Below, piece by piece: positions 45,193-62,070 of a DNA stretch of 64,000 bases. Under the pieces are notes generated by a model. That model had not been told where the DNA came from, ran no database searches, and saw only the letters and a program-made list of their open reading frames with translations. The stretch is from Candidatus Kaftiobacterium secundum. GTDB lineage: Bacteria; Sysuimicrobiota; Sysuimicrobiia; Sysuimicrobiales; Kaftiobacteriaceae. Each line of letters begins with the position of its first letter. The first letter of the stretch is position 1. The stretch spans positions 221,701-285,700 of the forward strand of contig JAVKHY010000001.1 in NCBI GenBank assembly GCA_031459765.1, written 5' to 3'. Position numbers and translations under genes: made by a program.

Positions 45193-46653
45193 TCATCCGC
45201 CTCTCCAGCGCAGGTCGGGCTGGCGCGCCGCGCGTACCTCATCCAGCCTCCGGACCGGCGTGGTGTGCGGCGCGTCGTGGACGATCTGAGGGTTCTCCTG
45301 GGCCTCGCGGTCGATGGCCCGCATCGCCTCGATGAACTCATCCAGGGTGCGCTTGCTCTCCGTCTCCGTGGGCTCGATCATGATCGCCTCGTCCACGATG
45401 AGCGGGAAGTAGATCGTCGGGGCGTGGAAGCCGTAGTCCAGCAGGCGCTTGGCCATGTCGCGGGTGGTGACGCCGTACTGCTTCTTCTGCCGGGTACCGG
45501 AGAGGACGAACTCGTGCTTGCACAACCGATCGTAGGGCAGGTCGAAGCGGTCGCGCAGCCGGGCCAGGACGTAGTTGGCGTTGAGCACCGCGGTCTCCGC
45601 CACCTGGCGCAGGCCGTCGGCGCCCATGGAGCGGATGTACGCATAGGCCCGGATCAGGTTTCCGAAGTTCCCGTAGAAGGCGCGGATCTTCCCGATAGAC
45701 TGCGGACGGTCATAGTCCAGCCGGAAGCGGTCGCCCTCCTTCTCCACCACCGGGACGGGGAGGAAGGGCACCAGGTGCGCCTTCACCCCCACCGCCCCCG
45801 CCCCCGGGCCGCCCCCGCCGTGGGGGGTGGAGAAGGTTTTGTGCAGGTTCATGTGCATCACGTCGAACCCCTGGTCGCCGGGCCGGGTGACGCCGAGGAT
45901 CGCGTTGAAGTTGGCGCCGTCCAGGTACATCTGCCCGCCGCGGCCGTGGACGATCTCCTCCACCTCGACGATGTGCTCTTCGAACAACCCCAGGGTGTTG
46001 GGATTCGTGAGCATGATCGCGGCCACGGAGGAGTCCATCGCCTCGCGCAGCGCCTGGACGTCCAGGTTCCCGCGGGCGTCCGATTTGACGGTGATTACCT
46101 GGTAGCCGGCCATGGCGGCGGTGGCGGGGTTGGTCCCGTGGGCCGAGTCGGGCACGATGACCTTCGTCCGGCGCTCGCCCCGGGCCTCGAAGTAGGCACG
46201 GATCATCAGGATTCCGGTGAGTTCTCCGTGGGCGCCGGCCGCGGGCTGAAAGGTCACCCGGTCCATGCCGCTGATCTCGGCCAGCGCCTGCTCCAGTTCC
46301 CAGATGAGCTCCAGCGCCCCCTGCGCGTCCTCCGGCATCGTGTAGGGATGGAGACGGCTGAACCCCGGGAGGCGCGCCGCATCCTCGTGGATCTTCGGAT
46401 TGTACTTCATGGTGCACGAACCCAGCGGGTAGAACCCTTCGTCGATGCTGAAGTTCCGGTGGGACAGCCGCGTGTAGTGGCGCACGACGTCCAGCTCGCT
46501 GACCTCCGGCAACCCCGGCGGCACCTGGCGGATCTGGTCGGCGGGGAGCAGGGCGTTCAGGGGCCGGCGCGGGACATCGGGTTCGGGGTAGGACGCGCCG
46601 ATGCGGCCGGGGGTGCTCAGCTCAAAGATCACCGGGAAGTCCCGCCCCTTCAT
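45193..46653 (-). CDS. gcvPB: Glycine dehydrogenase (decarboxylating) subunit 2
   Basis: [30 protein letters not shown]. Confidence 0.96.
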
Positions 46654-48038
46654 CGGATCCCCTCCAGCACCGCCACCAGCCGGTCGATCTGCGCCCGCGT
46701 CCGCTGTTCGGTGACGCAGACCAGCCAGCCGTCCGCCAGCTCGGGATAGTACCGGCCCAGGGGCAGCCCGCCCAGGATGCCTTCCCGGCGCAGCCGCTGG
46801 TTGACCTCCTCGGGCGGGACGGGCGTGCGGACTACGAACTCGTTGAAGATGGGCCCGTCGAAGGCGAGCCGAAAGCCCGGCAGCGCGCCGATCGCCTCTC
46901 GGGCGTAGGCCGCCTTGTAGAGGTTGAGTTCCGCCACCTTCCGCAGGCCCTGCGGCCCGAGCGCGGCCATGTAGATTCCCGCGGCCAGGGCCAGCAGCGC
47001 CTCGTTGGTGCAGATGTTGCTGGTGGCCTTCTCCCGCCGGATGTGCTGCTCCCGGGTCTGCAGCGTGAGCACGAACCCACGCCGCCCCTCCACATCGACC
47101 GTGGCCCCGACCAGGCGGCCGGGAATGCGCCGCACGTACTCGCGACGCGTGGCCATCATCCCCAGATAGGGACCGCCGAAGTTCAGGTGGTTGCCCAGGG
47201 GCTGCCCTTCACCGGCCACGATATCCGCGCCCCAGATCCCCGGCGGGGTGAGCAACCCCAGGGAAAGCGGCTCGGCCACGGCACAGATCAGAAGCGCCCC
47301 GCGGCGGTGGGCGATCTCGACCAGCGCCCGGCCGTCTTCGAGCAGACCGAAGAAGTTGGGGTGCTGGACGATGACCGCGGCCGTGCGTTCCGACAGGTGC
47401 GCGACGACGGTCTCGCCGTCGGTGCGGCCGTGACGGTGGGGGACCTCGACGACCTGGATCCCCAGGGGCCGGGTGTAGGTCTTCAGAACCTGGCGGTACT
47501 CCGGATGGACGGCGGTCGAGACGATGACCTCGTCCCGCCTGGTCAGGTCTCTGGCCATCACCGCCGCTTCGGCGGTGGCCGAGGCGCCGTCATACATGGA
47601 CGCGTTGGCCACGTCCATCGCCGTCAGCTCGCACAGCATGCTCTGATACTCGTAGATGGCCTGCAGCTCGCCCTGCATCATCTCGGCCTGATAGGGCGTA
47701 TAGGCCGTGAGGAACTCGCCGCGGCCGGCCAGGGCCCAGACCACGCTGGGCACGTAGTGGTCGTAGGCGCCCGCGCCCAGGAAACAGGCCGCGGCGTCGG
47801 CGTGGAGGTTCTTCGCGGCGAGGGCGCCGAGGGCGGTCATGACCTCAGGGTCGCTGAGGGGCGGGGGAAGCCGCAGCGGCGCCCGGAGCCGCACCGCCGC
47901 GGGGATATCGGCAAAGAGCGCCTCCACCGAGGGCACGCCCACGACCCGCAGCATCTCCGCCCGCTCGGCCTCCGTGGCGGGAATGTACTTGTGCTGCGCG
48001 CGGGGCGTCGCCGCCACAGGCTGCGGTTCGGCTTTCAT
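46650..48038 (-). CDS. gcvPA: Glycine dehydrogenase (decarboxylating) subunit 1
   Basis: [34 protein letters not shown]. Confidence 0.96.
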
Positions 48039-48421
48039 CAGGCCTCCTCCCCGATGACTTTCAGATACTGCTCCACGGTCATCAACTTGTCCAGCTCCTT
48101 CGGATCGCTGGGCTCCACCACGATGATCCAGCCTGCTCCGTAGGGATCGCTGTTCACGACCTCCGGGCTGTCCCGCAGCGCGGTGTTAACCTCAACCACG
48201 TTCCCGGAGACGGGGGCGTAGAGGTCCGAGACCGCTTTGACCGACTCGATCACCCCGAAGGGCTGCATGAAGGTCACCACGGCGCCTACCTCGGGGAGTT
48301 CGACGAAGACGACGTCACTGAGTCTGTCCGCGGCAAACTTCGTAATCCCGACGCGCACGCGGTCGCCCTCGACCCTGGCCCACTCGTGCTCACTGCTGTA
48401 CCGCAGGTCCTTGGGATACAT
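48038..48421 (-). CDS. gcvH: Glycine cleavage H protein
   Basis: HEW, IESVKAVSDLY lipoyl-Lys, NSDPYG.GW. Confidence 0.97.
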   Translation of the reverse strand: MYPKDLRYSSEHEWARVEGDRVRVGITKFAADRLSDVVFVELPEVGAVVTFMQPFGVIESVKAVSDLYAPVSGNVVEVNTALRDSPEVVNSDPYGAGWIIVVEPSDPKELDKLMTVEQYLKVIGEEA

Positions 48422-49522
48422 TCACGCGCTCCTTTTGTAGAAGGGAAGTCTGACCACGACGGCCCGCACCGGCTGCCCCCGAACCTCCACGTCGATCTCA
48501 ACTCCGGGCCGGGCGAACTCGGGCGGGACATAGCCCAGGCCGATGCCCTTTTGCACCCAGGGACCGAAGGTGCCGCTGGTCGCCCGGCCGATGGCGCGAC
48601 CTCCGGCCAGCAGGGTGTAGCCACGGCGGGGGATGGCCCGGTCCCGCATCTCGAACCCCACGAGCCTGCGGCGCACACCCTCCTGCTTCTGGCGGAGCAG
48701 GGCTTCCCGTCCAATGAACTCGCCCTTGTCCAGTTTGACCGTCCAGCCCAGGGGCGCTTCCAGCGGCGTGGTGGTTTCGTCGATGTCGTTGCCGTAGAGC
48801 ATCAACGCCGCCTCCAGTCGCAGGGTGTCCCGCGCCCCCAGCCCGACCGGAACCAGCCCCTCCTCCCGCCCGGCGTCCAGGAGGGTCTCCCACAGCCGCG
48901 GCGCCTCATCCCAGGGACAGCCGATCTCGAACCCGTCCTCCCCCGTATAGCCGCTCCGTGAGATAAAGCAGCGCACCCCCGCCACGTCCACCCCTTCGAC
49001 GATGTGGAAGAAGGGCAGATCGGCCGACCCAGGCCGGGTCAGACGGGCCAGGATCGCGGAGGCCCGGGGTCCCTGCAGGGCGAGGAGCGCGATCTCCGCC
49101 GAGCGGTTCCGCACCGCGGCGTTGACCGCGTGCTCGTGGATCCAGGCGAGATCCTTGTCCGTTGTGGCGGCGTTGACCACGAAGAGGAAGCGCCGCTCCC
49201 CCATCCGGAAGACGGTGAGGTCGTCCACGATGCCTCCGGTCGGCAGGCACATGGGACTGTACAGCCCCGCCCCGACCTCCAGGCGGGCGGCGTCGTTGGT
49301 GATGAGCCGCTGCACCGTGTCCAGCGCTCCCGGCCCCTCCACCTCGACCTCGCCCATGTGGGACACATCGAACAGGCCGGCGGCTGTGCGCACCGCCCGG
49401 TGCTCCTCGACGATGCCGGCGTACTGAACCGGCATCTCCCACCCGCCGAACTCGACCAGGCGCGCCCCGCGCCGCAGGTGCGCGGGATACAGGCTGGTCC
49501 GCTTCAGCCCCTCAGCGGCCAT
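48422..49522 (-). CDS. gcvT: Glycine cleavage aminomethyltransferase
   Basis: [36 protein letters not shown]. Confidence 0.97.
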
Positions 49523-50162
49523 AGAGTTCGCGCTCCCTGGCCCGCAGCAGGGCGATCGCCTCCTCGTCGGATGTCTGGGCGAAGTCCTCGTAGAACTGCC
49601 CGACGGCGTAGAACATGACCGGCGTGTAGAGACAGACGACCTCGTCCGCCTCGGCCCGCAGGCTCTCACAGCCCTCCGGCGGGGCCACGGGCACGGCGGC
49701 CACGGTCGCCTCCGGCCGCATCCGCCGCACCGCCCGGAGCGCGGCGATCATCGTCGAGCCGGTGGCGATGCCGTCGTCCACCACGATCGCCACACGTCCG
49801 TCCAGGGCCGGCGGCGGACGGTCTCCGCGATAGGCGGCCAGCCGCCGCCGGATCTCCTCCATCTGGAAGGCGACCTCGTCCTTCAGGTAGTCCTCCGGCA
49901 CCTGCAGCGTCCCGACCAGCGGCGAGTCGTAGTACACGCTGCCGTCCTGCGCCACGGCACCGATCGCCAGTTCCGGATTGTGGGGGGCGCGGAGCTTGCG
50001 CGGGACGACGACGTCCAGCGGCGCCTCTAACGCTTTGGCCACCTCATAGCCGACAACGATCCCGCCGCGCGGGATGGCCAGGACGAAAGGCCGGCGGGAA
50101 CGGTAGCCGTCCAGGGCTGCGGCCAGCGCACGACCAGCCTCCCGGCGGTCGCGGAACGTCAT
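49512..50162 (-). CDS. Type I phosphoribosyltransferase-like protein
   Basis: FRDRREAG, AIPRGG, VVDDGIATGST, AVGQFY. Confidence 0.9.
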   Translation of the reverse strand: MTFRDRREAGRALAAALDGYRSRRPFVLAIPRGGIVVGYEVAKALEAPLDVVVPRKLRAPHNPELAIGAVAQDGSVYYDSPLVGTLQVPEDYLKDEVAFQMEEIRRRLAAYRGDRPPPALDGRVAIVVDDGIATGSTMIAALRAVRRMRPEATVAAVPVAPPEGCESLRAEADEVVCLYTPVMFYAVGQFYEDFAQTSDEEAIALLRARERELYGR

Positions 50163-50300
50163 CGCCGCGCACACACCTTCCGGAGATCTCCCGGCGGCGT
50201 CATCCTTCCACGACGGGAAATCGGTTTCCTGTGGCCGCTCCGCGGGCCCGCCTCCTCCATGGTGGAGGCCGCCGCGGGCGCCGACCATAGCCCGAACCGG

Positions 50301-51758
50301 CTAGCGGGGCTCGGTCAGCCGACGGAGTTCGCGGCGGAGGAGGTTCCAGGCGGCGCGGACGTGGCTCTCTCCGGTGCGGATGTGACCGATGGCGAAGCGC
50401 AGCGTGAAGGCTCCGCGCAGGCGGGTGTGGGACAGGAAAGCGTCCCCGGTCGCGTTCACGGCGTCGAGCAGCGCCGCATTCACCTCATCCAGCCGGTCCG
50501 GGGGCACGCCTCGGGGGCGGGCCCGGAAGCAGACGGTGCTGAAGGGCGTGGGGGCCAGGCGTTCGAACTCCGGGTCCCCGTCGATCCACGACGCCAGGAG
50601 CTGCCCCAGCCGGACGTGCTCGCGGATCCGCGCCGCCAGCCCTTCCCAGCCGAAGTAGCGGATCACCATCCACAGCTTCAGGGCCCGGAAGCGGCGGCCC
50701 AACTGGATGCCGTAGTCCATAAAGTCCCGCACGCCGGCGGCCTCTGCCTCTGCGGTGCGCAGGTACTCGGGCACGAGGCTGAACGCCGCACGCAGCACCT
50801 CCGGCCGCCGACAGTAGAACGCGCTGCAGTCAATAGGGGTGAACAGCCACTTGTGCGGGTTGATCACCACCGAATCGGCGTGGTCGCAGCCGTCGAGCGC
50901 CCACCGGAACTCCGGCGCGATCGCCGCCATGCCGGCGTAGGCGCCGTCCACATGGAGCCACAGGCCTTCCTGACGGCAGACCTCGGCGATGGCCGGCACG
51001 GGATCCACGCTCGTCGTCGAGGTCGTGCCCACCGTCGCCGCCACGCAGAACGGCCGCCACCCGGCGTCCCGGTCCTCGGCCACGGCCCGACGGAGCGCCG
51101 CCACGTCCATGCGGAACGCGCTGTCGGTGGGGATCTTGCGCACGCCCGATCGCCCCAGGCCCAGCACGATCCCCGCCTTCTCGATGGAGGAGTGGGCCTG
51201 CTCCGAGGTGTACAGCCGCAACCGCGGCCCGCCGGCCATCCCTTCCTCCCGGAACCGGTGCTCGGCCACCGCTTCGCGCGCCGCAGCGATGGCGCAGAGG
51301 CTGGCCACGGAGGCGGTGTCCATGATGATCCCCATGAACCCCTCGGGGAGCCCGACCATCTGGCGAAGCCAGTTCAGGGCGACCTCCTCGAGTTCGGTGG
51401 CGGCGGGCGAGGTCTTCCAGAGCATGGCGTTCACGTTGAGCGCGGCCGCCAGCAGTTCTCCCAGGATCCCCGGCGCCGATCCGGTGATGGCAAAGTACGC
51501 GAAGAAGGCCGGGTGATTCCAGTGCGTGATGCCGGGCAGCAGCACCTGTTCGAAATCCGCCAGGATGCGGTCCATCGGCTCACCGCGACGGGGCGGCTCC
51601 GCGGGCAGCGCGGCTTTGATCGCTCCGGGGCGGGTCCGCGCCAGGACGGGATATCGCTCGGGGTGGGCGAGATAGTCCGCGGCCCAGGCCACGACCCGGC
51701 GCCCGTACTCCTCGAACTCCTCCGCCGGCATGTCGCCGAACAGTCCCTCACCGGCCAT
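50301..51758 (-). CDS. Group II PLP decarboxylase, aromatic-L-amino-acid decarboxylase-like
   Basis: THWNHP, SPAATELE, HVDGAYAG, NPHKW, GRRFRALKLW. Confidence 0.9.
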   Translation of the reverse strand: MAGEGLFGDMPAEEFEEYGRRVVAWAADYLAHPERYPVLARTRPGAIKAALPAEPPRRGEPMDRILADFEQVLLPGITHWNHPAFFAYFAITGSAPGILGELLAAALNVNAMLWKTSPAATELEEVALNWLRQMVGLPEGFMGIIMDTASVASLCAIAAAREAVAEHRFREEGMAGGPRLRLYTSEQAHSSIEKAGIVLGLGRSGVRKIPTDSAFRMDVAALRRAVAEDRDAGWRPFCVAATVGTTSTTSVDPVPAIAEVCRQEGLWLHVDGAYAGMAAIAPEFRWALDGCDHADSVVINPHKWLFTPIDCSAFYCRRPEVLRAAFSLVPEYLRTAEAEAAGVRDFMDYGIQLGRRFRALKLWMVIRYFGWEGLAARIREHVRLGQLLASWIDGDPEFERLAPTPFSTVCFRARPRGVPPDRLDEVNAALLDAVNATGDAFLSHTRLRGAFTLRFAIGHIRTGESHVRAAWNLLRRELRRLTEPR

Positions 51759-51785
51759 TGCCGCCCCCCTCAGCCTCCACCGTGC

Positions 51786-52340
51786 TCACAACCCCAGCTC
51801 CGGCGCAATCGCCCGCAGCGCCTCGATCACAAACGCGATGTGCTCCTCCAGCGGAATCCCCAGTTCCTCCGCCCCTCTGAGCACATCCTCCCGGCTGACC
51901 CCGCGGGCGAAGGCCTTGTCCTTCAGCTTCTTCCGGACGGCCTGGACATCGACCTCAGCCAGCGACCGGTTGGGGCGCACGTAAGCCACCGCCGTGATGA
52001 AGCCCACGAGCTCGTCCACCGCGTAGAGCGCCTTCTCCAGCCGCGTCTGTCGCGGCACGCCGGTGTACTCGGCATGCGAGAGGATGGCCCGCGTCCACAT
52101 CTCGGGCACCCCGCGCCGGCGCAGCTCCTCCACCCCGACGAAGGGGTGGCCGGCCTCCTGCGATGGACACCGCTCGTAGTCCAGGTCGTGCAGCAGGCCG
52201 ATCACTCCCCACAGCTCCTCGTCCTCCCCGAACTTCCGGGCGTAGGCGCGCATCGCGGCCTCGGAGGCCAGGAGGTGCTTGCGCAGGTTCGGATTGTGAA
52301 TCCACTCGCAGACCAGTTGCCAGGCCTCGTCGCGGGTCAT
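51786..52340 (-). CDS. HD-domain phosphohydrolase
   Basis: KH, GLLHDLD, AVDEL; start at ATG 52340. Confidence 0.85.
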   Translation of the reverse strand: MTRDEAWQLVCEWIHNPNLRKHLLASEAAMRAYARKFGEDEELWGVIGLLHDLDYERCPSQEAGHPFVGVEELRRRGVPEMWTRAILSHAEYTGVPRQTRLEKALYAVDELVGFITAVAYVRPNRSLAEVDVQAVRKKLKDKAFARGVSREDVLRGAEELGIPLEEHIAFVIEALRAIAPELGL

Positions 52341-52432
52341 GCCGTGCGAATTCGCGACACGGCCTCCGCGGGCCTGCGGTCCACGTCCCCGACGGCAAGA
52401 GTTCTCCGCCGGCGTGTCGAACAGCACGCGCC

Positions 52433-57460: not shown

Positions 57461-57673
57461 TCATCGCGGCACCGGGTCGTAGCCCCCCGGATGCAGGGGG
57501 TGGCACCGCAGCAACCGCCGCAGGGCCAGGTAGCCGCCCTTCAGGGCGCCGTGGCGGGCGATGGCCTCCGCCGCGTACTGCGAGCACGACGGGTAGAAGC
57601 GACACGACGGCGGGAGCAGGGGAGAGATGACTCTCCTGTAGAGGTGAATGAGCACCAGCAGCAGTTGCCTCAT
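57461..57673 (-). CDS. yidD: Membrane protein insertion efficiency factor YidD
   Basis: [25 protein letters not shown]. Confidence 0.95.
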
Positions 57674-57987
57674 CGGGCTCCCGCAGCCCGATTGAACAGC
57701 GCGCGGACGGAATCCTGCAGCGCGGCGAAGGGCGCCTCTCCCGCCGGGGGTCGCCCCACAACCACGACATCGGTCCCCGACGGCAGCAGGGCCGCGGCCA
57801 TCCGACTGGCTTCGCGCAGGCGCCGCTTCAGACGATTCCGCCGGACGGCACTGCCCACACGCGCCGGCACGACGATCCCGAGCCGCCGGACAGCCAGCTT
57901 GTTCGGACGGGCGTACACAATCAGCAACCCATCGGTGACTCGCGCGCCTTCTCGGTAGGCCAGACGGAAGTGTTCCGGGGCGGTCAA
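57670..57987 (-). CDS. rnpA: Ribonuclease P protein component; start uncertain (TTG 57987 assumed)
   Basis: [22 protein letters not shown] (RNR motif). Confidence 0.88.
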
Positions 57988-58006
57988 CCGCCGGAACGTC
58001 GCGCCC

Positions 58007-58141
58007 TCAGATGGCGAGGCGGTGCCGACCCTTGGCTCTCCGACGCTTGAGGACATTCCGCCCGCCGGGAGTGCGCATTCGGGCACGGAATCCGTGCCGC
58101 CGTTGCCGGCGACGAACCTTCGGCTGGTACGTCCCCTTCAC
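58007..58141 (-). CDS. rpmH: 50S ribosomal protein L34 (missing from the supplied ORF track)
   Basis: Translated by hand: [44 protein letters not shown]. Confidence 0.96.
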
Positions 58142-58148
58142 GACCACC

Positions 58149-58157
58149 ACTATACCA
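58149..58157 (-). promoter_or_regulatory. Extended -10 promoter of rpmH
   Basis: TGGTATAGT, 7 nt before the GTG start. Confidence 0.7.
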
Positions 58158-58202
58158 TGCTCCAGGCGGCGTCGACAGGACGAATCCCTTCTGCGTCGCG
58201 GC

Positions 58203-58371
58203 TGTGGAGAACCTGAGGATAATCGGGGGGGTTGCCCACAGATTTCGGGGCCGAACTGGGTGTGCCGCCAGCCCGGTGTGCCCGCACCGGCGGCCGGTCC
58301 GAGGCAATCCTCCGCCGTCGTTTCCTCCTGCCGTCAGGGTTGTCCACAGGGTTTTTCACATCTGTGGAAAA
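58203..58371. promoter_or_regulatory. DnaA-box cluster upstream of the dnaA operon
   Basis: TGTGGAGAA 58203, TTGCCCACA 58232, TTGTCCACA 58340, TTTTTCACA 58352, TGTGGAAAA 58363. Confidence 0.8.
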
Positions 58372-58631
58372 CTCGCGGCGCGCTGATCTGACGCCCGCTT
58401 TGACGCACTCACGTTCGGCAGGAACGGCCCCCTGCACTCAAGAAATCGCCCACACTTCCCCTCGAGCTATCCACCATCACGGTCATCTCTTGGTGATCTA
58501 TGGCGCACCGTGAAATTCTTTCCGGCAACGCCCGCTGGGTAGGAGATCCCCGCGACCCGGATAACTCAGGCATCCGTTGTCAGCACCTTCGTCGCCCGAT
58601 CGCCCCCGGCGTGTGGTGGAGTCGCTGAGCC

Positions 58632-59429
58632 ATGCCGGACCTTGCACGGTTCTTGCATCCGCCCGATCGGGAAGCCGAGAGCGACGGGGGGCGCGGCGAG
58701 GCGGAAGTGCGTCTGGCGATTTACGACTCCCCGCTGGCCACGCCGCGGGTGATCACGCTGCGCGGAGAGGAGTTTCATCAGTTCGTGGGGGAACTCGCCG
58801 CGCGCACGTACCACCACTCCCGCGAGCGGGGTGGACGGATTCCCTACGTGGTGATCAGGGAAATTGTAGAGAACCTTATCCACGCCTACTTCGAAGGCGC
58901 CGTGATCAGTATTCTCGACGACGGGAACACCATCCGCATCTCGGACCAAGGGCCCGGAGTCGCCGATCCCGAGAAGGCCCTCCTCCCCGGATACACGACG
59001 GCCACCGCGGAGATGCGGCGCTACATCAAGGGCGTCGGATCCGGCCTTCCGGTGGCCAAAGAGCAGCTGGCGTTCCTCGGGGGAGCCCTCCGCATCGACT
59101 CCAACCTCTCCCGCGGGACCGTGGTCACGCTCTCCGTCGGACCGGCGTCGCCCCCCCAGACCGCCGCGGCGGTCACGTCTCCGCCGGACCCCGCCTCCAC
59201 CCGTCCCCCTGAACTGACGCCGCGTCAGAAAAAGGTTCTGCTGCTGATTGCGGAAATGGGCTCGGCCGGTCCATCCGCCGTGGCCAAGGAACTCGGCGTC
59301 AGCCAGAGTACGGCCTATCGCGAACTGCAGGCGCTCAGCGCGCTCCGCCTCATCCACAGCCGCCGTTCAGGCAAACGCACCCTGACCGAGGACGGGATCG
59401 CCGTCCTCGGAACCGTGTTCAAGTCCTAG
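58632..59429 (+). CDS. GHKL (HATPase_c-like) ATP-binding protein with C-terminal winged HTH, directly upstream of dnaA
   Basis: N-box EIVENLIHA, G1 DQGPG, GYTT, GVGSGL; C-terminal LTPRQ..GPSAVAKELGVSQSTAYRELQAL. Confidence 0.85.
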   Translation: MPDLARFLHPPDREAESDGGRGEAEVRLAIYDSPLATPRVITLRGEEFHQFVGELAARTYHHSRERGGRIPYVVIREIVENLIHAYFEGAVISILDDGNTIRISDQGPGVADPEKALLPGYTTATAEMRRYIKGVGSGLPVAKEQLAFLGGALRIDSNLSRGTVVTLSVGPASPPQTAAAVTSPPDPASTRPPELTPRQKKVLLLIAEMGSAGPSAVAKELGVSQSTAYRELQALSALRLIHSRRSGKRTLTEDGIAVLGTVFKS

Positions 59430-59438
59430 GAGGAGGCC

Positions 59439-60785
59439 ATGGTCGTCGATACGACATCCGCATCGGGAGTCTGGCAGGAGGCGCTCCGCCGCATCGAGGG
59501 TCGGCTGACCAAGCCGAGTTTCGAGTCCTTCGTCAAGGCCATGGCCCCCGTATCCCTGCACGACGACACCTTCGTCTTCTCCGTCCCCAGCCGCCTGGCC
59601 AAAGAGTGGGTCGAAACGCGGTTCAGCGCCCTGATCCACGGAGCGCTGCGCGAAGTCCTGGCCCGCGCCGTCTCCATTCAGCTCGTCATCGCCGAGGACC
59701 ACCCCGCCGCACCGTCCTCTCCCCCCGCGCCGGTAGCGCCGCCGCGACTGTCGGAGACACCCCAGCTCAGCCCCAAATACACCTTCGATACCTTTGTCAT
59801 CGGCACAGGAAACCGCTTCGCCCACGCCGCGGCGATGGCGGTGGCCGAATCGCCCGCCCGTGCCTACAACCCGCTCTTCATCTACGGCGGCGTGGGCCTG
59901 GGCAAGACGCATCTGCTGCAGGCCATCGGGCACTACGTCATCCACCGCCTGGGGCTGCCGCGGGTTGCCTACATCAGCAGCGAGAAGTTCACCAACGAGT
60001 TGATCAACGCCATTCGGGATGACCGGACCCTGGAGTTCCGTACGCGGTATCGCAACGTGGACGTGTTGCTCATCGACGACATCCAGTTCCTGGCCGGCAA
60101 AGAGCGCACCCAGGAGGAGTTCTTTCACACCTTCAACACCCTCCACGAGGCCAGCCGGCAGATCATTATCACCAGCGATCGCCCGCCCAAAGAGATCCCC
60201 ACGCTCGAAGACCGGCTTCGTTCGCGCTTCGAGTGGGGCCTGATCGCCGACATCCAGCCGCCCGATCTGGAGACCCGCATCGCCATCCTCCGCAAGAAAG
60301 CCGAGCTGGACGGTATTGACGTCCCCGACCAGGTGGCCGAATTCATCGCCCAGCGCATCCGTTCCAACATCCGCGAGCTGGAGGGAGCCCTGGTCCGTGT
60401 CGTAGCCTACGCCAACCTCACGCGCCAGCCGATCACGATCGACCTGGCCACCGAGATCCTGAGAACGTTGCTCCCCGCGACCACCACGCGGGAGATCACC
60501 ATCCCCGTTCTGCAGAAGGCCGTGGCCGAGCACTTCGGCATTCGCGTCGAAGAGATGCGGGCCAAACGGCGAACCAAAGGGGTGGCCTTCCCCCGTCAGG
60601 TCGCCATGTACCTGGCGCGCGAACTCACCGACGCCTCGCTACCGCGCATCGGCCACGAGTTCGGCGGAAGGGACCACACCACGGTGATGCACGCCTGCGA
60701 ACGGGTCAAAGCCGCGCTGGCCCGAGATCCTCAGCTCGCGGCGCGGCTGGAAAAACTTGTGGACACCCTGCGTGCCGGCGAGTAA
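59439..60785 (+). CDS. dnaA: Chromosomal replication initiator DnaA
   Basis: [39 protein letters not shown]. Confidence 0.98.
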
Positions 60786-60845
60786 CCCCGTCCGCCCCCA
60801 GGCCCGGCGTGGGTCCGTGGGCGCCGGTGCACGTCTATCCTCAGG

Positions 60846-60955
60846 CTATACACACCCAATACACCCTGCTATCGTTACCGTGAAACTGTCTCGACCACAG
60901 TATCCACAGGTCTATTAGTAGTGGGATGAAGTTCATTGTAATAAATCTTGGAGGA
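60846..60955. other. oriC: Probable oriC unwinding region (DnaA boxes, trio-like run, AT-rich tract)
   Basis: CTATACACA 60846, GTATCCACA 60900 followed by GGT-CTA TTA GTA; AT-rich tract; plus strand changes from C-rich to G-rich here. Confidence 0.75.
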
Positions 60956-60960
60956 TAGTC

Positions 60961-62070
60961 ATGTGGGTTGTGTGTACACAGACCGCGTTGGCTAAAGGGG
61001 TGCATCTGGCCAGTCGCGCTATTTCCAGCCGCACCACCATGCCTATTCTGGGCTATATCCTCCTGGAGACGCTGAAGAACGGTGTGCGGCTTACGGCCAC
61101 CGATCTGGAGCTGGCCGTACAGGTGGATATCGACGCCGAGGTGAAACGCGGCGGGCAGGTGACGCTCCCGGCGAAGATTCTGGCTGAGATCGTGGGAAAT
61201 CTCCCGGAAGCGACCGTGGAGCTGAAGCGGGAGGAAGGGTCTCACCAGGTAGAGATCACTTGTGAGGCCAGCGCCTTTGAAATTCTGGGGCTGCCCCCGG
61301 ACGATTTCCCGGCGCTGCCGAAGGGTGAGGGGGCGGAAGTCGGGGCGATCGACGCCGATCTGTTGCGCAAGATGGTGAGTCAGACGATTTTCGCCGTCTC
61401 GGCCGACGAGACGCGGCCTTTTCTCACAGGTGTGTACGTCACCATGGAGGGAGCCGAGGTGCGCTGCGTGGCTACGGACGGTGGGCGTCTGGCCCTGCGC
61501 AAGGCCGCTCTGGATTCTCCGGCCAAGCAGAAGCTGGGCGCCATCGTGCCGGCCAAGGCCATGCAGGAGCTGATGCGCGCCCTGGCCGGTGCCGCAGGAG
61601 AGGTTCGGGTGAGCATGGTGGACAACCAGCTGCTGTTTGCCGTACCGGGGTTGCGGATCTACTCCCGGTTGATTGGCGGCCAGTTTCCGAACTACCAGCA
61701 GGTGATTCCCCAGGAGTTCAAGCAGCGCATCCGGGTGCCCACGGAACGGCTGCTCCGCGCCGTCCGGCGGGTAGCGATTACCGCCCGGGACTCGGCCAAC
61801 GTGGTGCGGATTGCGGCCAGGGGGAACCGTCTGGTCATCACCTCCAATACGCCTGAGGTGGGCAAGGCCCGCGAAGAGGTGGAGGTGGCCAGCGAGGGCG
61901 ACACCGTGGAGGCGGCCTTTAACGCGCGGTACCTGATGGATTGTCTCAACACGATTGACGCCGACGAGCTCTATTTCGACCTCACCGGACAACTCAGTCC
62001 GGGTACCCTCCGGCCTACCGGGCACACCGATTACGTCTATGTTCTGGCGCCTGTCCGCGTCTACGGGTGA
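60961..62070 (+). CDS. dnaN: DNA polymerase III beta clamp
   Basis: ATDLE, RPFLTG, ATDG.RL, FPNYQQVIP, AFNARYL. Confidence 0.97.
   Translation: MWVVCTQTALAKGVHLASRAISSRTTMPILGYILLETLKNGVRLTATDLELAVQVDIDAEVKRGGQVTLPAKILAEIVGNLPEATVELKREEGSHQVEITCEASAFEILGLPPDDFPALPKGEGAEVGAIDADLLRKMVSQTIFAVSADETRPFLTGVYVTMEGAEVRCVATDGGRLALRKAALDSPAKQKLGAIVPAKAMQELMRALAGAAGEVRVSMVDNQLLFAVPGLRIYSRLIGGQFPNYQQVIPQEFKQRIRVPTERLLRAVRRVAITARDSANVVRIAARGNRLVITSNTPEVGKAREEVEVASEGDTVEAAFNARYLMDCLNTIDADELYFDLTGQLSPGTLRPTGHTDYVYVLAPVRVYG

Follow-up and report, generated by a model that had tools for sequence, protein, structure and literature searches.

A GHKL–winged-helix protein encoded immediately upstream of dnaA is a candidate regulator of replication initiation in Sysuimicrobiota and Coriobacteriia

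The decision at the centre of the bacterial cell cycle is how DnaA is controlled, and regulators that act at oriC or on DnaA are known from several groups: Spo0A, SirA, Soj and YabA in Bacillus, MtrA in Mycobacterium, CtrA in Caulobacter, HP1021 and HobA in Helicobacter, AdpA in Streptomyces, and SeqA, Hda, DiaA and IciA in Escherichia coli. Such regulators are restricted to particular lineages, and work on a handful of model organisms has supplied essentially all of those known. We know of none that is encoded as the head gene of a dnaA operon across whole phyla. Here we describe gene X, which lies directly upstream of dnaA in a 64,000-nucleotide stretch of the genome of Candidatus Kaftiobacterium secundum (contig JAVKHY010000001.1, positions 221,701 to 285,700; hereafter the window). 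X stands for the 265-amino-acid (aa) product of the gene, which joins an ATP-binding domain of the GHKL type to a C-terminal winged helix-turn-helix (wHTH). An initial annotation proposed X as a regulator of replication initiation or of dnaA, and its position immediately 5′ of dnaA, on the same strand, in 94 of the 94 loci where this could be tested supports it as a candidate for that role.

Several of the known regulators provide a point of comparison. MtrA, CtrA, Spo0A and HP1021 are wHTH or HTH proteins whose binding to the origin is switched by a phosphoryl group; X is proposed to use an on-board ATP-binding domain instead. What X would share with the known regulators is the proposed role, a lineage-restricted modulation of DnaA, oriC or dnaA transcription. 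Unlike X, they contain no GHKL domain, and no family of known DnaA or oriC regulators is among the Pfam and NCBIfam matches of X.

The linkage to dnaA was followed through three sets of loci. In 20 species-representative genome loci X has rpmH/rnpA on one side and dnaA on the other as far as the contigs reach, and dnaA is next to it at all 19 that are testable (tblastn). The same arrangement accompanies 7/7 additional proteins, which were picked for divergence and long contigs and include a 2.5-Mb complete genome, an Atopobiaceae member, a metagenome-assembled genome (MAG) labelled as Clostridia, and N-terminally extended members. A profile-guided scan of metagenome contigs contributed 80 further X loci (48–78% identity). 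Sixty-eight of these have at least 400 bp downstream, and dnaA follows directly in 67; the remaining locus (L103) was considered as an exception and rejected, since its dnaA has lost its N-terminus to the contig end, and the count becomes 68/68. The adjacency spans at least three phylum-level lineages, including lineages only 40–50% identical in X. Between X and dnaA there are 9–96 nt in the genome loci and a median of 45 nt (range 3–92) in 67 metagenome loci, a spacing which suggests that X is co-transcribed with dnaA. The neighbours on the other side are less constant. One lineage (L078, L080, L082, L087, L090, L102, L103 and L108; X ∼51% identical to that of the window) lacks rpmH, rnpA, yidD and yidC upstream of X and has genes for a thiamine-pyrophosphokinase-like protein and a multi-pass membrane protein there, with X-dnaA-dnaN-recF kept. 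Because the linkage survives where the upstream neighbours have been replaced, the constraint is on X-dnaA and not on X-rpmH, and the linkage is tied to dnaA specifically. Conserved dnaA adjacency among homologues was the support that the initial annotation had asked for, and the homologues are not scattered.

By similarity searches X forms a discrete, moderately large family. A word-indexed search returned 1795 relatives, the best 120 of them at 61–100% identity, and a further search gave 4223 homologues. When 1.84 billion representatives were searched exhaustively with a profile, 393 clusters (at 50% identity) matched with E < 1e-30 and 558 with E < 1e-10; generic HATPase matches in the same search numbered 8092 at E < 1e-3. 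Members occur in Sysuimicrobiota (CSP1-3) MAGs, including eight Candidatus Fervidifonticultor species, in Coriobacteriia (Anaerosomatales, Coriobacteriales, Atopobiaceae and Tractidigestivibacter) and in MAGs labelled as Clostridia, where the taxonomy of many contigs is that of their MAG labels and some are probably mis-binned. Sysuimicrobiota/CSP1-3 is an uncultivated phylum (PMC11604079). The initial annotation had mentioned similar unannotated proteins in Coriobacteriia, and they are indeed there (e.g., RefSeq WP_433569812.1, named ‘ATP-binding protein’), with far longer linkers and a total length of 330–490 aa. Relatives of X go under source names no more specific than ‘ATP-binding protein’, ‘histidine kinase’ and ‘hypothetical protein’, or under labels for generic regulators. 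Two contigs labelled Roseiflexaceae (L020, DATMBA010000540.1) and Bryobacteraceae (P0037) encode an X protein 78–85% identical to that of the window; their X and DnaA proteins together fall at 78–88% identity, and both are probably mis-binned Sysuimicrobiota-like contigs. No paralogue of X occurs within the window, and no full-length relative was found among 72,556 plasmid or 50,697 phage records. Membership of a defence-system or phage family was also considered and rejected, as PADLOC and PHROGs gave single-domain matches only and no plasmid or phage record held a full-length relative. Because full-text searching of the literature brought up no account of such a gene ahead of dnaA, we rate X as new in its combination of known domains and in its genomic position; its context makes it a strong candidate for an origin regulator.

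The N-terminal domain of X can be assigned to the GHKL (Bergerat-fold) superfamily by Pfam threshold and motifs. HATPase_c matches residues 72–169 with E = 9e-11 and 42.6 bits (gathering cutoff 26.4), and it matches every member of a cross-phylum alignment of 59 X sequences. The N, G1 and G2 boxes that the initial annotation had recognised are invariant in that alignment (Table 1), as are E80, a lid motif P119-G-x-T-T/A and a G-T pair at 162–163. HMMER aligns N81 of X with the Mg-binding N-box Asn of KinB, and in the structural models the N-terminal 70 aa, ahead of the N-box helix, form a β-β-α element. AlphaFold2, given the 59-sequence alignment, models full-length X with a predicted local distance difference test score (pLDDT) of 82.5, the GHKL domain and wHTH lying mostly at 85–97 and the N-terminal ∼20 residues being disordered. 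Modelled alone, the GHKL domain reaches a pLDDT of 87.2 and a predicted template modelling score (pTM) of 0.83.

Within the superfamily, the nearest PDB sequences (phmmer/hmmsearch) are KinB, CheA, WalK, HK853 and the BCK/PDK kinases, with SpoIIAB and MutL weaker, and the nearest folds (Foldseek) are the CA domains of CpxA, HK853, WalK and EnvZ-type chimeras, together with BCK. Because its nearest sequences and folds are histidine-kinase CA domains, BCK/PDK and CheA, the domain belongs to the kinase branch. Histidine-kinase CA domains (KinB 3d36, CpxA 4biz, HK853 3dge, WalK 3sl2) share with X the Bergerat fold, the N, G1 and G2 boxes and a P-G/Y-F-T-T lid, and they are its best matches in both sequence (E 1.6e-6 to 1e-4) and structure (Foldseek E ∼2e-7, TMq ∼0.5). 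Unlike sensor histidine kinases, X has no DHp/HisKA domain, phospho-acceptor His, sensor or transmembrane region, or cognate response regulator; its GHKL domain is instead fused to a wHTH and its gene is fixed upstream of dnaA. The lack of a His phosphoacceptor and of a sensor domain, already noted for X itself, extends to all 59 members, in which no HisKA/DHp, PAS, GAF, transmembrane or STAS domain was detected and H84, within the N box, is the sole invariant His. With neither the DHp/His domain nor an input domain nor a response regulator, X is not a sensor histidine kinase.

The two domains are joined by the Pro-rich linker that the initial annotation had described, which is disordered in the AlphaFold2 model. 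Linker length varies through the family and exceeds 200 aa in Atopobiaceae; representatives of 330–490 aa match X as two separate stretches. The wHTH itself is matched by HTH_IclR (residues ∼195–261, 24.4 bits against a cutoff of 22) and, below their cutoffs, by MarR_2, TrmB and HVO_A0261_N; IclR/MarR/TrmB-type HTH models match 33–40 of the 59 members at E < 1e-3. TIGR01884 (Csa3) scores 27.2 bits against a cutoff of 60.2, on the wHTH part only, and PADLOC matches of the CARF-wHTH type cover only residues ∼187–260. The wHTH is thus of the Csa3/CasR/TrmB/IclR type, as in ligand-gated transcription factors. Its recognition helix reads S224-Q-S-T-A-Y-R230 and its wing G247-K-R-T-L-T. Family-wide, helix S-x-S-T-A-Y-R-E/D-L and wing G-K-R-x-L-T are nearly invariant, and S226, T227, A228, R230, G247 and R249 are invariant across phyla.

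In overall plan X resembles one-component wHTH regulators (Csa3/CasR with CARF-wHTH; TrmB, IclR and MarR), which likewise place a ligand or nucleotide domain at the N-terminus and a wHTH at the C-terminus. The sensor domain of X is a GHKL ATPase, however, where these proteins have CARF, IclR-effector or TrmB-sugar domains, and save for the IclR HTH the matches are below cutoffs. No IclR C-terminal, TrmB sugar or MarR dimer-helix domain was detected in X, the remainder of which is the GHKL domain. NCBIfam holds no family-level model for X, the best partial matches being the Csa3 wHTH and SpoIIAB, far below cutoff. Judged by these scores and domains, X appears to fall outside the SpoIIAB/RsbW, Csa3, IclR, MarR and TrmB families.

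Four features, namely the invariant ATP-site residues, the invariant wHTH surface, the fixed position 5′ of dnaA and the location inside the origin, lead us to a reading that we hold to be about equally apt to prove right or wrong: X would be a lineage-specific, origin-encoded one-component regulator of dnaA and/or oriC, in which the GHKL domain controls DNA binding by the wHTH. X and DnaA would be made together, from a shared transcript and, in the window, probably by coupled translation. X would bind origin-region DNA as a dimer, the best candidate site being a palindrome ∼220–300 nt upstream of the gene (see below). By binding or hydrolysing ATP, the GHKL domain would then switch either DNA binding or a contact with DnaA, and this switch would couple dnaA transcription and/or initiation to the nucleotide or energy state of the cell. 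Whether the net effect would be repression or activation is something that the sequence cannot tell. In a more ambitious form, which we offer as possible but rather doubtful, X represents an unrecognised class of regulator, an ATP-driven GHKL anti-initiator or co-initiator made in stoichiometric amounts with DnaA from one mRNA; it would read the palindrome with its invariant wHTH and gate DnaA at the dnaA promoter and at oriC by ATP binding, hydrolysis or phosphotransfer, and its conservation would reach from Sysuimicrobiota to the human-associated Atopobiaceae of the Coriobacteriia and some Bacillota-like lineages.

The candidate site belongs to a cluster of DnaA boxes between rpmH and X. Scored against the consensus TTATCCACA at ≤1 mismatch, the window contains 10 boxes where 2.26 are expected, a number that 0/100 shuffles reach. 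The cluster named in the initial annotation is borne out, with four boxes at this threshold and others with two mismatches. Between three and six boxes lie upstream of X in 23/23 loci checked and hold most of the boxes of each locus. Within the cluster two boxes face each other head to head, exactly 2 bp apart, to form a palindrome (consensus TTnTCCACA-NN-TGTGGAnAA), and a third box (TTGTCCACA, 58340–58348), 3 nt ahead of it, extends this to a triple-box element at 58340–58371. The CCACA-N2-TGTGG core is present with ≤1 mismatch in 73 of 93 X-bearing loci, against at most four loci in shuffled controls, and across phyla it keeps an almost constant distance, at a median of 297 nt (interquartile range 244–308), upstream of the conserved core of X. 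Because one helical turn separates its half-sites, the spacing that a dimeric wHTH would call for, and because it is the sole element conserved as widely as the recognition helix of X, the palindrome is the best candidate for an X operator; it could be a DnaA autoregulatory operator, an X operator, or both. Autoregulation by DnaA at the dnaA promoter is on record for several phyla (PMC8203912).

Recognition helix and palindrome tend to occur together: 54 of the 58 loci with the canonical S-T-A-Y/F-R helix have the palindrome, and 11 of the 18 with variant helices lack it. In a metagenome clade (L072, L078, L094, L095, L101, L102 and L107) the helix of X reads A-P-A-T-A-Y/F-R, not S-x-S-T-A-Y-R, and the right half-site is fixed as TGTCGAAAA, a derived form and a poor DnaA box, instead of TGTGGAAAA. 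This association may reflect co-variation of X with its site, and we treat it as a weak lead, not as evidence.

Several points weigh against a one-component regulator that reads the palindrome. The information profile of the palindrome matches two DnaA boxes exactly, and DnaA is therefore enough to account for it. Apart from DnaA boxes, the flanking intergenic regions hold no motif conserved across phyla; a cross-phylum operator of any other kind was sought by k-mer and gapped-palindrome enumeration and rejected, since only box-derived motifs emerged upstream and only trio repeats downstream. On the tree, the association of helix and palindrome amounts to ∼2–3 independent evolutionary events, chiefly in one clade. 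The case for co-transcription of X and dnaA is one of gene spacing only, and the geometry between the GHKL domain and the wHTH is not confidently predicted (full-length pTM 0.58). Finally, X keeps the full catalytic set, including the Glu at −4 of the N box, which is no less in keeping with an enzyme (kinase or ATPase) than with a passive ATP sensor.

This last point leads to a different reading, in which X acts enzymatically on a protein, either as a DNA-tethered Ser/Thr (or trans-His) kinase or as an ATP-dependent anti-initiator that binds or phosphorylates DnaA, with the wHTH localising it at oriC. SpoIIAB and RsbW bind sigma factors and phosphorylate the antagonists of these factors, and BCK and PDK phosphorylate Ser. 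SpoIIAB/RsbW (HATPase_c_2, TIGR01925) and X are both kinase-branch GHKL proteins without a DHp, with E-x3-N and H-(A/G)-Y motifs and a domain of ∼145 aa. Every catalytic element is retained in X, among them E77 at −4 from N81, as in SpoIIAB, PDK and the GHL ATPases; this is the position of the catalytic Glu in GyrB/MutL/Hsp90, PDK and SpoIIAB. Its H-A-Y motif resembles the N-A-x-x-H-G/A-Y of anti-sigma kinases, TIGR01925 gives a weak SpoIIAB match (E = 1.7e-5), and BCK and SpoIIAB are among the PDB matches. The lack of a DHp makes autophosphorylation on a His in cis impossible, and obligate co-expression with DnaA would suit a stoichiometric partner or substrate. The family thresholds are nevertheless missed (SpoIIAB 24.7 against 135 bits, HATPase_c_2 15.3 against 27.4 bits), HATPase_c_2 matches only 1/59 X members at E < 1e-3, and the closest structures are histidine-kinase CA domains. 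The conserved neighbourhood contains no STAS, PP2C or sigma-factor gene, and among the homologues listed (up to 535 aa) there is no X-DnaA fusion. SpoIIAB and RsbW also regulate by binding a DNA-binding partner, whereas X carries a DNA-binding domain of its own. The likeness to SpoIIAB/RsbW drawn in the initial annotation holds as far as a GHKL domain without a DHp is concerned; it fails at the family thresholds, the closest relatives being histidine-kinase CA domains, followed by BCK/PDK and CheA. We consider an enzyme of this kind a serious though unlikely rival, while noting that the regulator and enzyme readings are not mutually exclusive.

A structural role has also to be weighed, given the architecture of the origin. 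The dnaA-dnaN spacer, at 54% GC in a window of ∼68–70%, contains a DnaA box followed by trinucleotides that read TAT TAG TAG TGG GAT GAA (NAN, central A) and by an AT-rich stretch; most related loci likewise have runs of TAC, CTA or TAG trinucleotides next to a box in this spacer. The arrangement is that of a probable unwinding element, similar to the module of DnaA box, DnaA-trio and DNA unwinding element (DUE) that Richardson and colleagues reportedly described in B. subtilis in 2016. GC skew is negative from ∼32 to 62 kb, with its minimum at ∼58–62 kb, and positive in the last bin, which is consistent with an origin at the X locus. With boxes on both sides, X and dnaA lie between the two DnaA-box halves of what is by implication a bipartite origin. 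Bipartite origins flanking dnaA are described in B. subtilis and H. pylori (PMC8203912).

A GHKL ATPase encoded between two such modules could dimerise on ATP and remodel or bridge origin DNA, for instance by looping the box cluster to the dnaA-dnaN module. ATP-driven dimerisation is established for GyrB, MutL and MORC, and the E-x3-N motif of X is that of the hydrolytic GHL enzymes. Among solved structures only DIP2311 of Corynebacterium diphtheriae (3lmm), a structural-genomics protein of unknown function, matches X in both the GHKL domain and the wHTH (Foldseek E 2.4e-7, 264–279 aligned columns, TMq 0.44–0.47, root-mean-square deviation ∼11 Å, 16% identity to the X model); it is twice the length of X, has extra N-terminal domains and has no known link to dnaA. 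In sequence and fold, however, X is of the kinase branch and not of the GyrB/MutL/Hsp90/MORC branch: its P-G-F-T-T lid motif is common to KinB and CheA, and its matches to MutL are marginal (E ∼1.5e-3) and confined to the N box. X is also small and lacks both a transducer domain and an N-terminal strap, and we think a bridging function very improbable. We give least credence to X being a conventional transcription factor that serves unrelated targets or the divergent rpmH-rnpA-yidC operon and merely hitch-hikes beside dnaA, since, for all that wHTH regulators are ubiquitous and origin-proximal gene order is very stable across bacteria, the adjacency is unbroken across lineages this divergent in X and outlasts replacement of the rpmH-side neighbours, strand and tight spacing are the same everywhere, and the family is never found elsewhere, plasmids and phages included.

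The features of the locus are collected in Table 1.

Table 1. Features of the X-dnaA region, in window coordinates
Feature	Position	Strand	Description and basis
Gene X	58632-59429	+	First gene of the X-dnaA(-dnaN) cluster; ORF listing, sequence, Pfam HATPase_c, wHTH matches, homologues
GHKL (histidine-kinase CA-like) ATP-binding domain	58704-59141 (residues ∼25-170)	+	Models, Foldseek, phmmer/hmmsearch against PDB
N box	58860-58886	+	E77-I-V-E-N81-L-I-H84-A85; invariant in alignments A1, A2 and A3; Mg2+/ATP-binding Asn, Glu at -4
G1 box	58944-58958	+	D105-Q-G-P-G109; D105, G107, P108 and G109 invariant across phyla
G2 box	59031-59051	+	G134-V-G-S-G-L-P140; end of ATP lid; invariant across phyla
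Pro/Ala-rich disordered linker	59139-59216 (residues ∼170-195)	+	pLDDT <50 at 176-186; gap-rich alignment
C-terminal winged helix-turn-helix	59217-59426 (residues 196-265)	+	Pfam, Csa3/CasR-type matches, pLDDT 89-97
Shine-Dalgarno-like GGTGGAG	58615-58621	+	10 nt 5′ of X ATG; read from sequence
Upstream DnaA-box cluster	58203-58371		Between rpmH and X; boxes at 58203, 58214, 58232, 58340, 58352, 58363
Head-to-head DnaA-box palindrome TTTTTCACA-TC-TGTGGAAAA	58352-58371		Whole window copy TTTTTCACATCTGTGGAAAA; candidate DnaA and/or X operator
dnaA Shine-Dalgarno AGGAGGAGG	59428-59436	+	Overlaps X stop, within 9-nt X-dnaA gap; read from sequence
dnaA (448 aa)	59439-60785	+	Directly 3′ of X; ORF, tblastn synteny, Pfam domains in related loci
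dnaA-dnaN spacer module	60900-60949	+	Box GTATCCACA 60900-60908; trios 60913-60930; AT-rich stretch 60931-60949
rpmH (L34)	58007-58150	-	Divergent from X; heads rpmH-rnpA-yidD-yidC-jag-rsmG-parA-parB

The window reads parB-parA-rsmG-jag-yidC-yidD-rnpA-rpmH on the minus strand and then X-dnaA-dnaN-S4 (yaaA-like)-recF-dciA, which is the classic origin-proximal cluster. The open reading frame (ORF) of X begins with ATG and ends with TAG at 59427–59429; an in-frame TGA at 58626–58628, two codons ahead of the ATG, rules out an N-terminal extension. Close relatives keep TGGTGGA ahead of X, in keeping with the Shine-Dalgarno-like sequence of the window. The dnaA ATG follows at 59439, and the 9-nt gap, with the Shine-Dalgarno sequence of dnaA in it, is as the initial annotation had it. 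No terminator-like site was found in 57900–61100, and a sigma-70 promoter scan gave no convincing promoter for X, although the consensus may not apply to this phylum. The longest rnpA ORF (57670–58086, minus strand) overlaps the rpmH ORF by 80 nt; relatives align only from about residue 25–34, and the true start of rnpA is probably further downstream. Upstream of the par genes, 46650–52424 (minus strand) encodes glycine-cleavage P and T proteins, a phosphoribosyltransferase, a pyridoxal-phosphate-dependent decarboxylase and an HD-domain protein; the presence of glycine-cleavage genes agrees with the potential for a reductive glycine pathway that has been reported for CSP1-3/Sysuimicrobiota (PMC11604079).

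Conserved non-coding blocks in 58400–58580 (GCGCACTCACGTTCGGCAGGAAC, GAGCTATCCACcATCACGGT, TGAAAT, GGGTAGGAG and CGGATAACTCAgGCATCCGT), which contain small inverted repeats, are common only to the closest relatives (L001, L002, L007 and L013); they could be a promoter, a 5′ untranslated leader or extra origin elements. For a structured RNA leader at 58460–58631, RNAalifold on five relatives returned a covariation term of +0.32 with few compensatory pairs, and Rfam had no above-threshold match for the leader region upstream of X. A weak Rfam match to AsdA, an antisense RNA to dnaA mRNA, at 59883–59935 (minus strand; 21.9 bits against a gathering score of 52, E = 0.21) is most likely due to chance. 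Within the coding sequence of X, DnaA-box-like 9-mers lie over L-I-H codons at 58876–58884 (N-L-I-H-A, in the N box) and 59350–59358 (R-L-I-H-S, in the wHTH wing). The first (TTATCCACG) was rejected as a functional DnaA box: it is present with ≤1 mismatch in only 3/94 loci, its codons follow the genomic bias, and we regard it as incidental. X and dnaA also share a reading frame in the window (807 nt from ATG to ATG) and the 9-nt gap holds no further stop, so that read-through of the TAG would yield an X-EEA-DnaA fusion. Such a fusion was rejected as well, because the nearest relatives have a 10-nt gap and the shared frame is not conserved.

With the same strand, a gap of 3–96 nt and all 94 loci in agreement, X is tied to dnaA more closely than any regulator known to us. 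Its range takes in an uncultivated phylum, the Coriobacteriia (with gut, oral and vaginal Atopobiaceae) and Clostridia-labelled genomes, and labels such as ‘ATP-binding protein’ and ‘histidine kinase’ probably hide a specific, conserved function. If X does regulate initiation, a GHKL or kinase-type ATP switch would be added beside the AAA+ switch of DnaA itself, and the coordination of dnaA transcription with origin firing at bipartite origins would become testable. It would also provide a direct handle on replication control in the Coriobacteriia, about which, to our knowledge, nothing is known.

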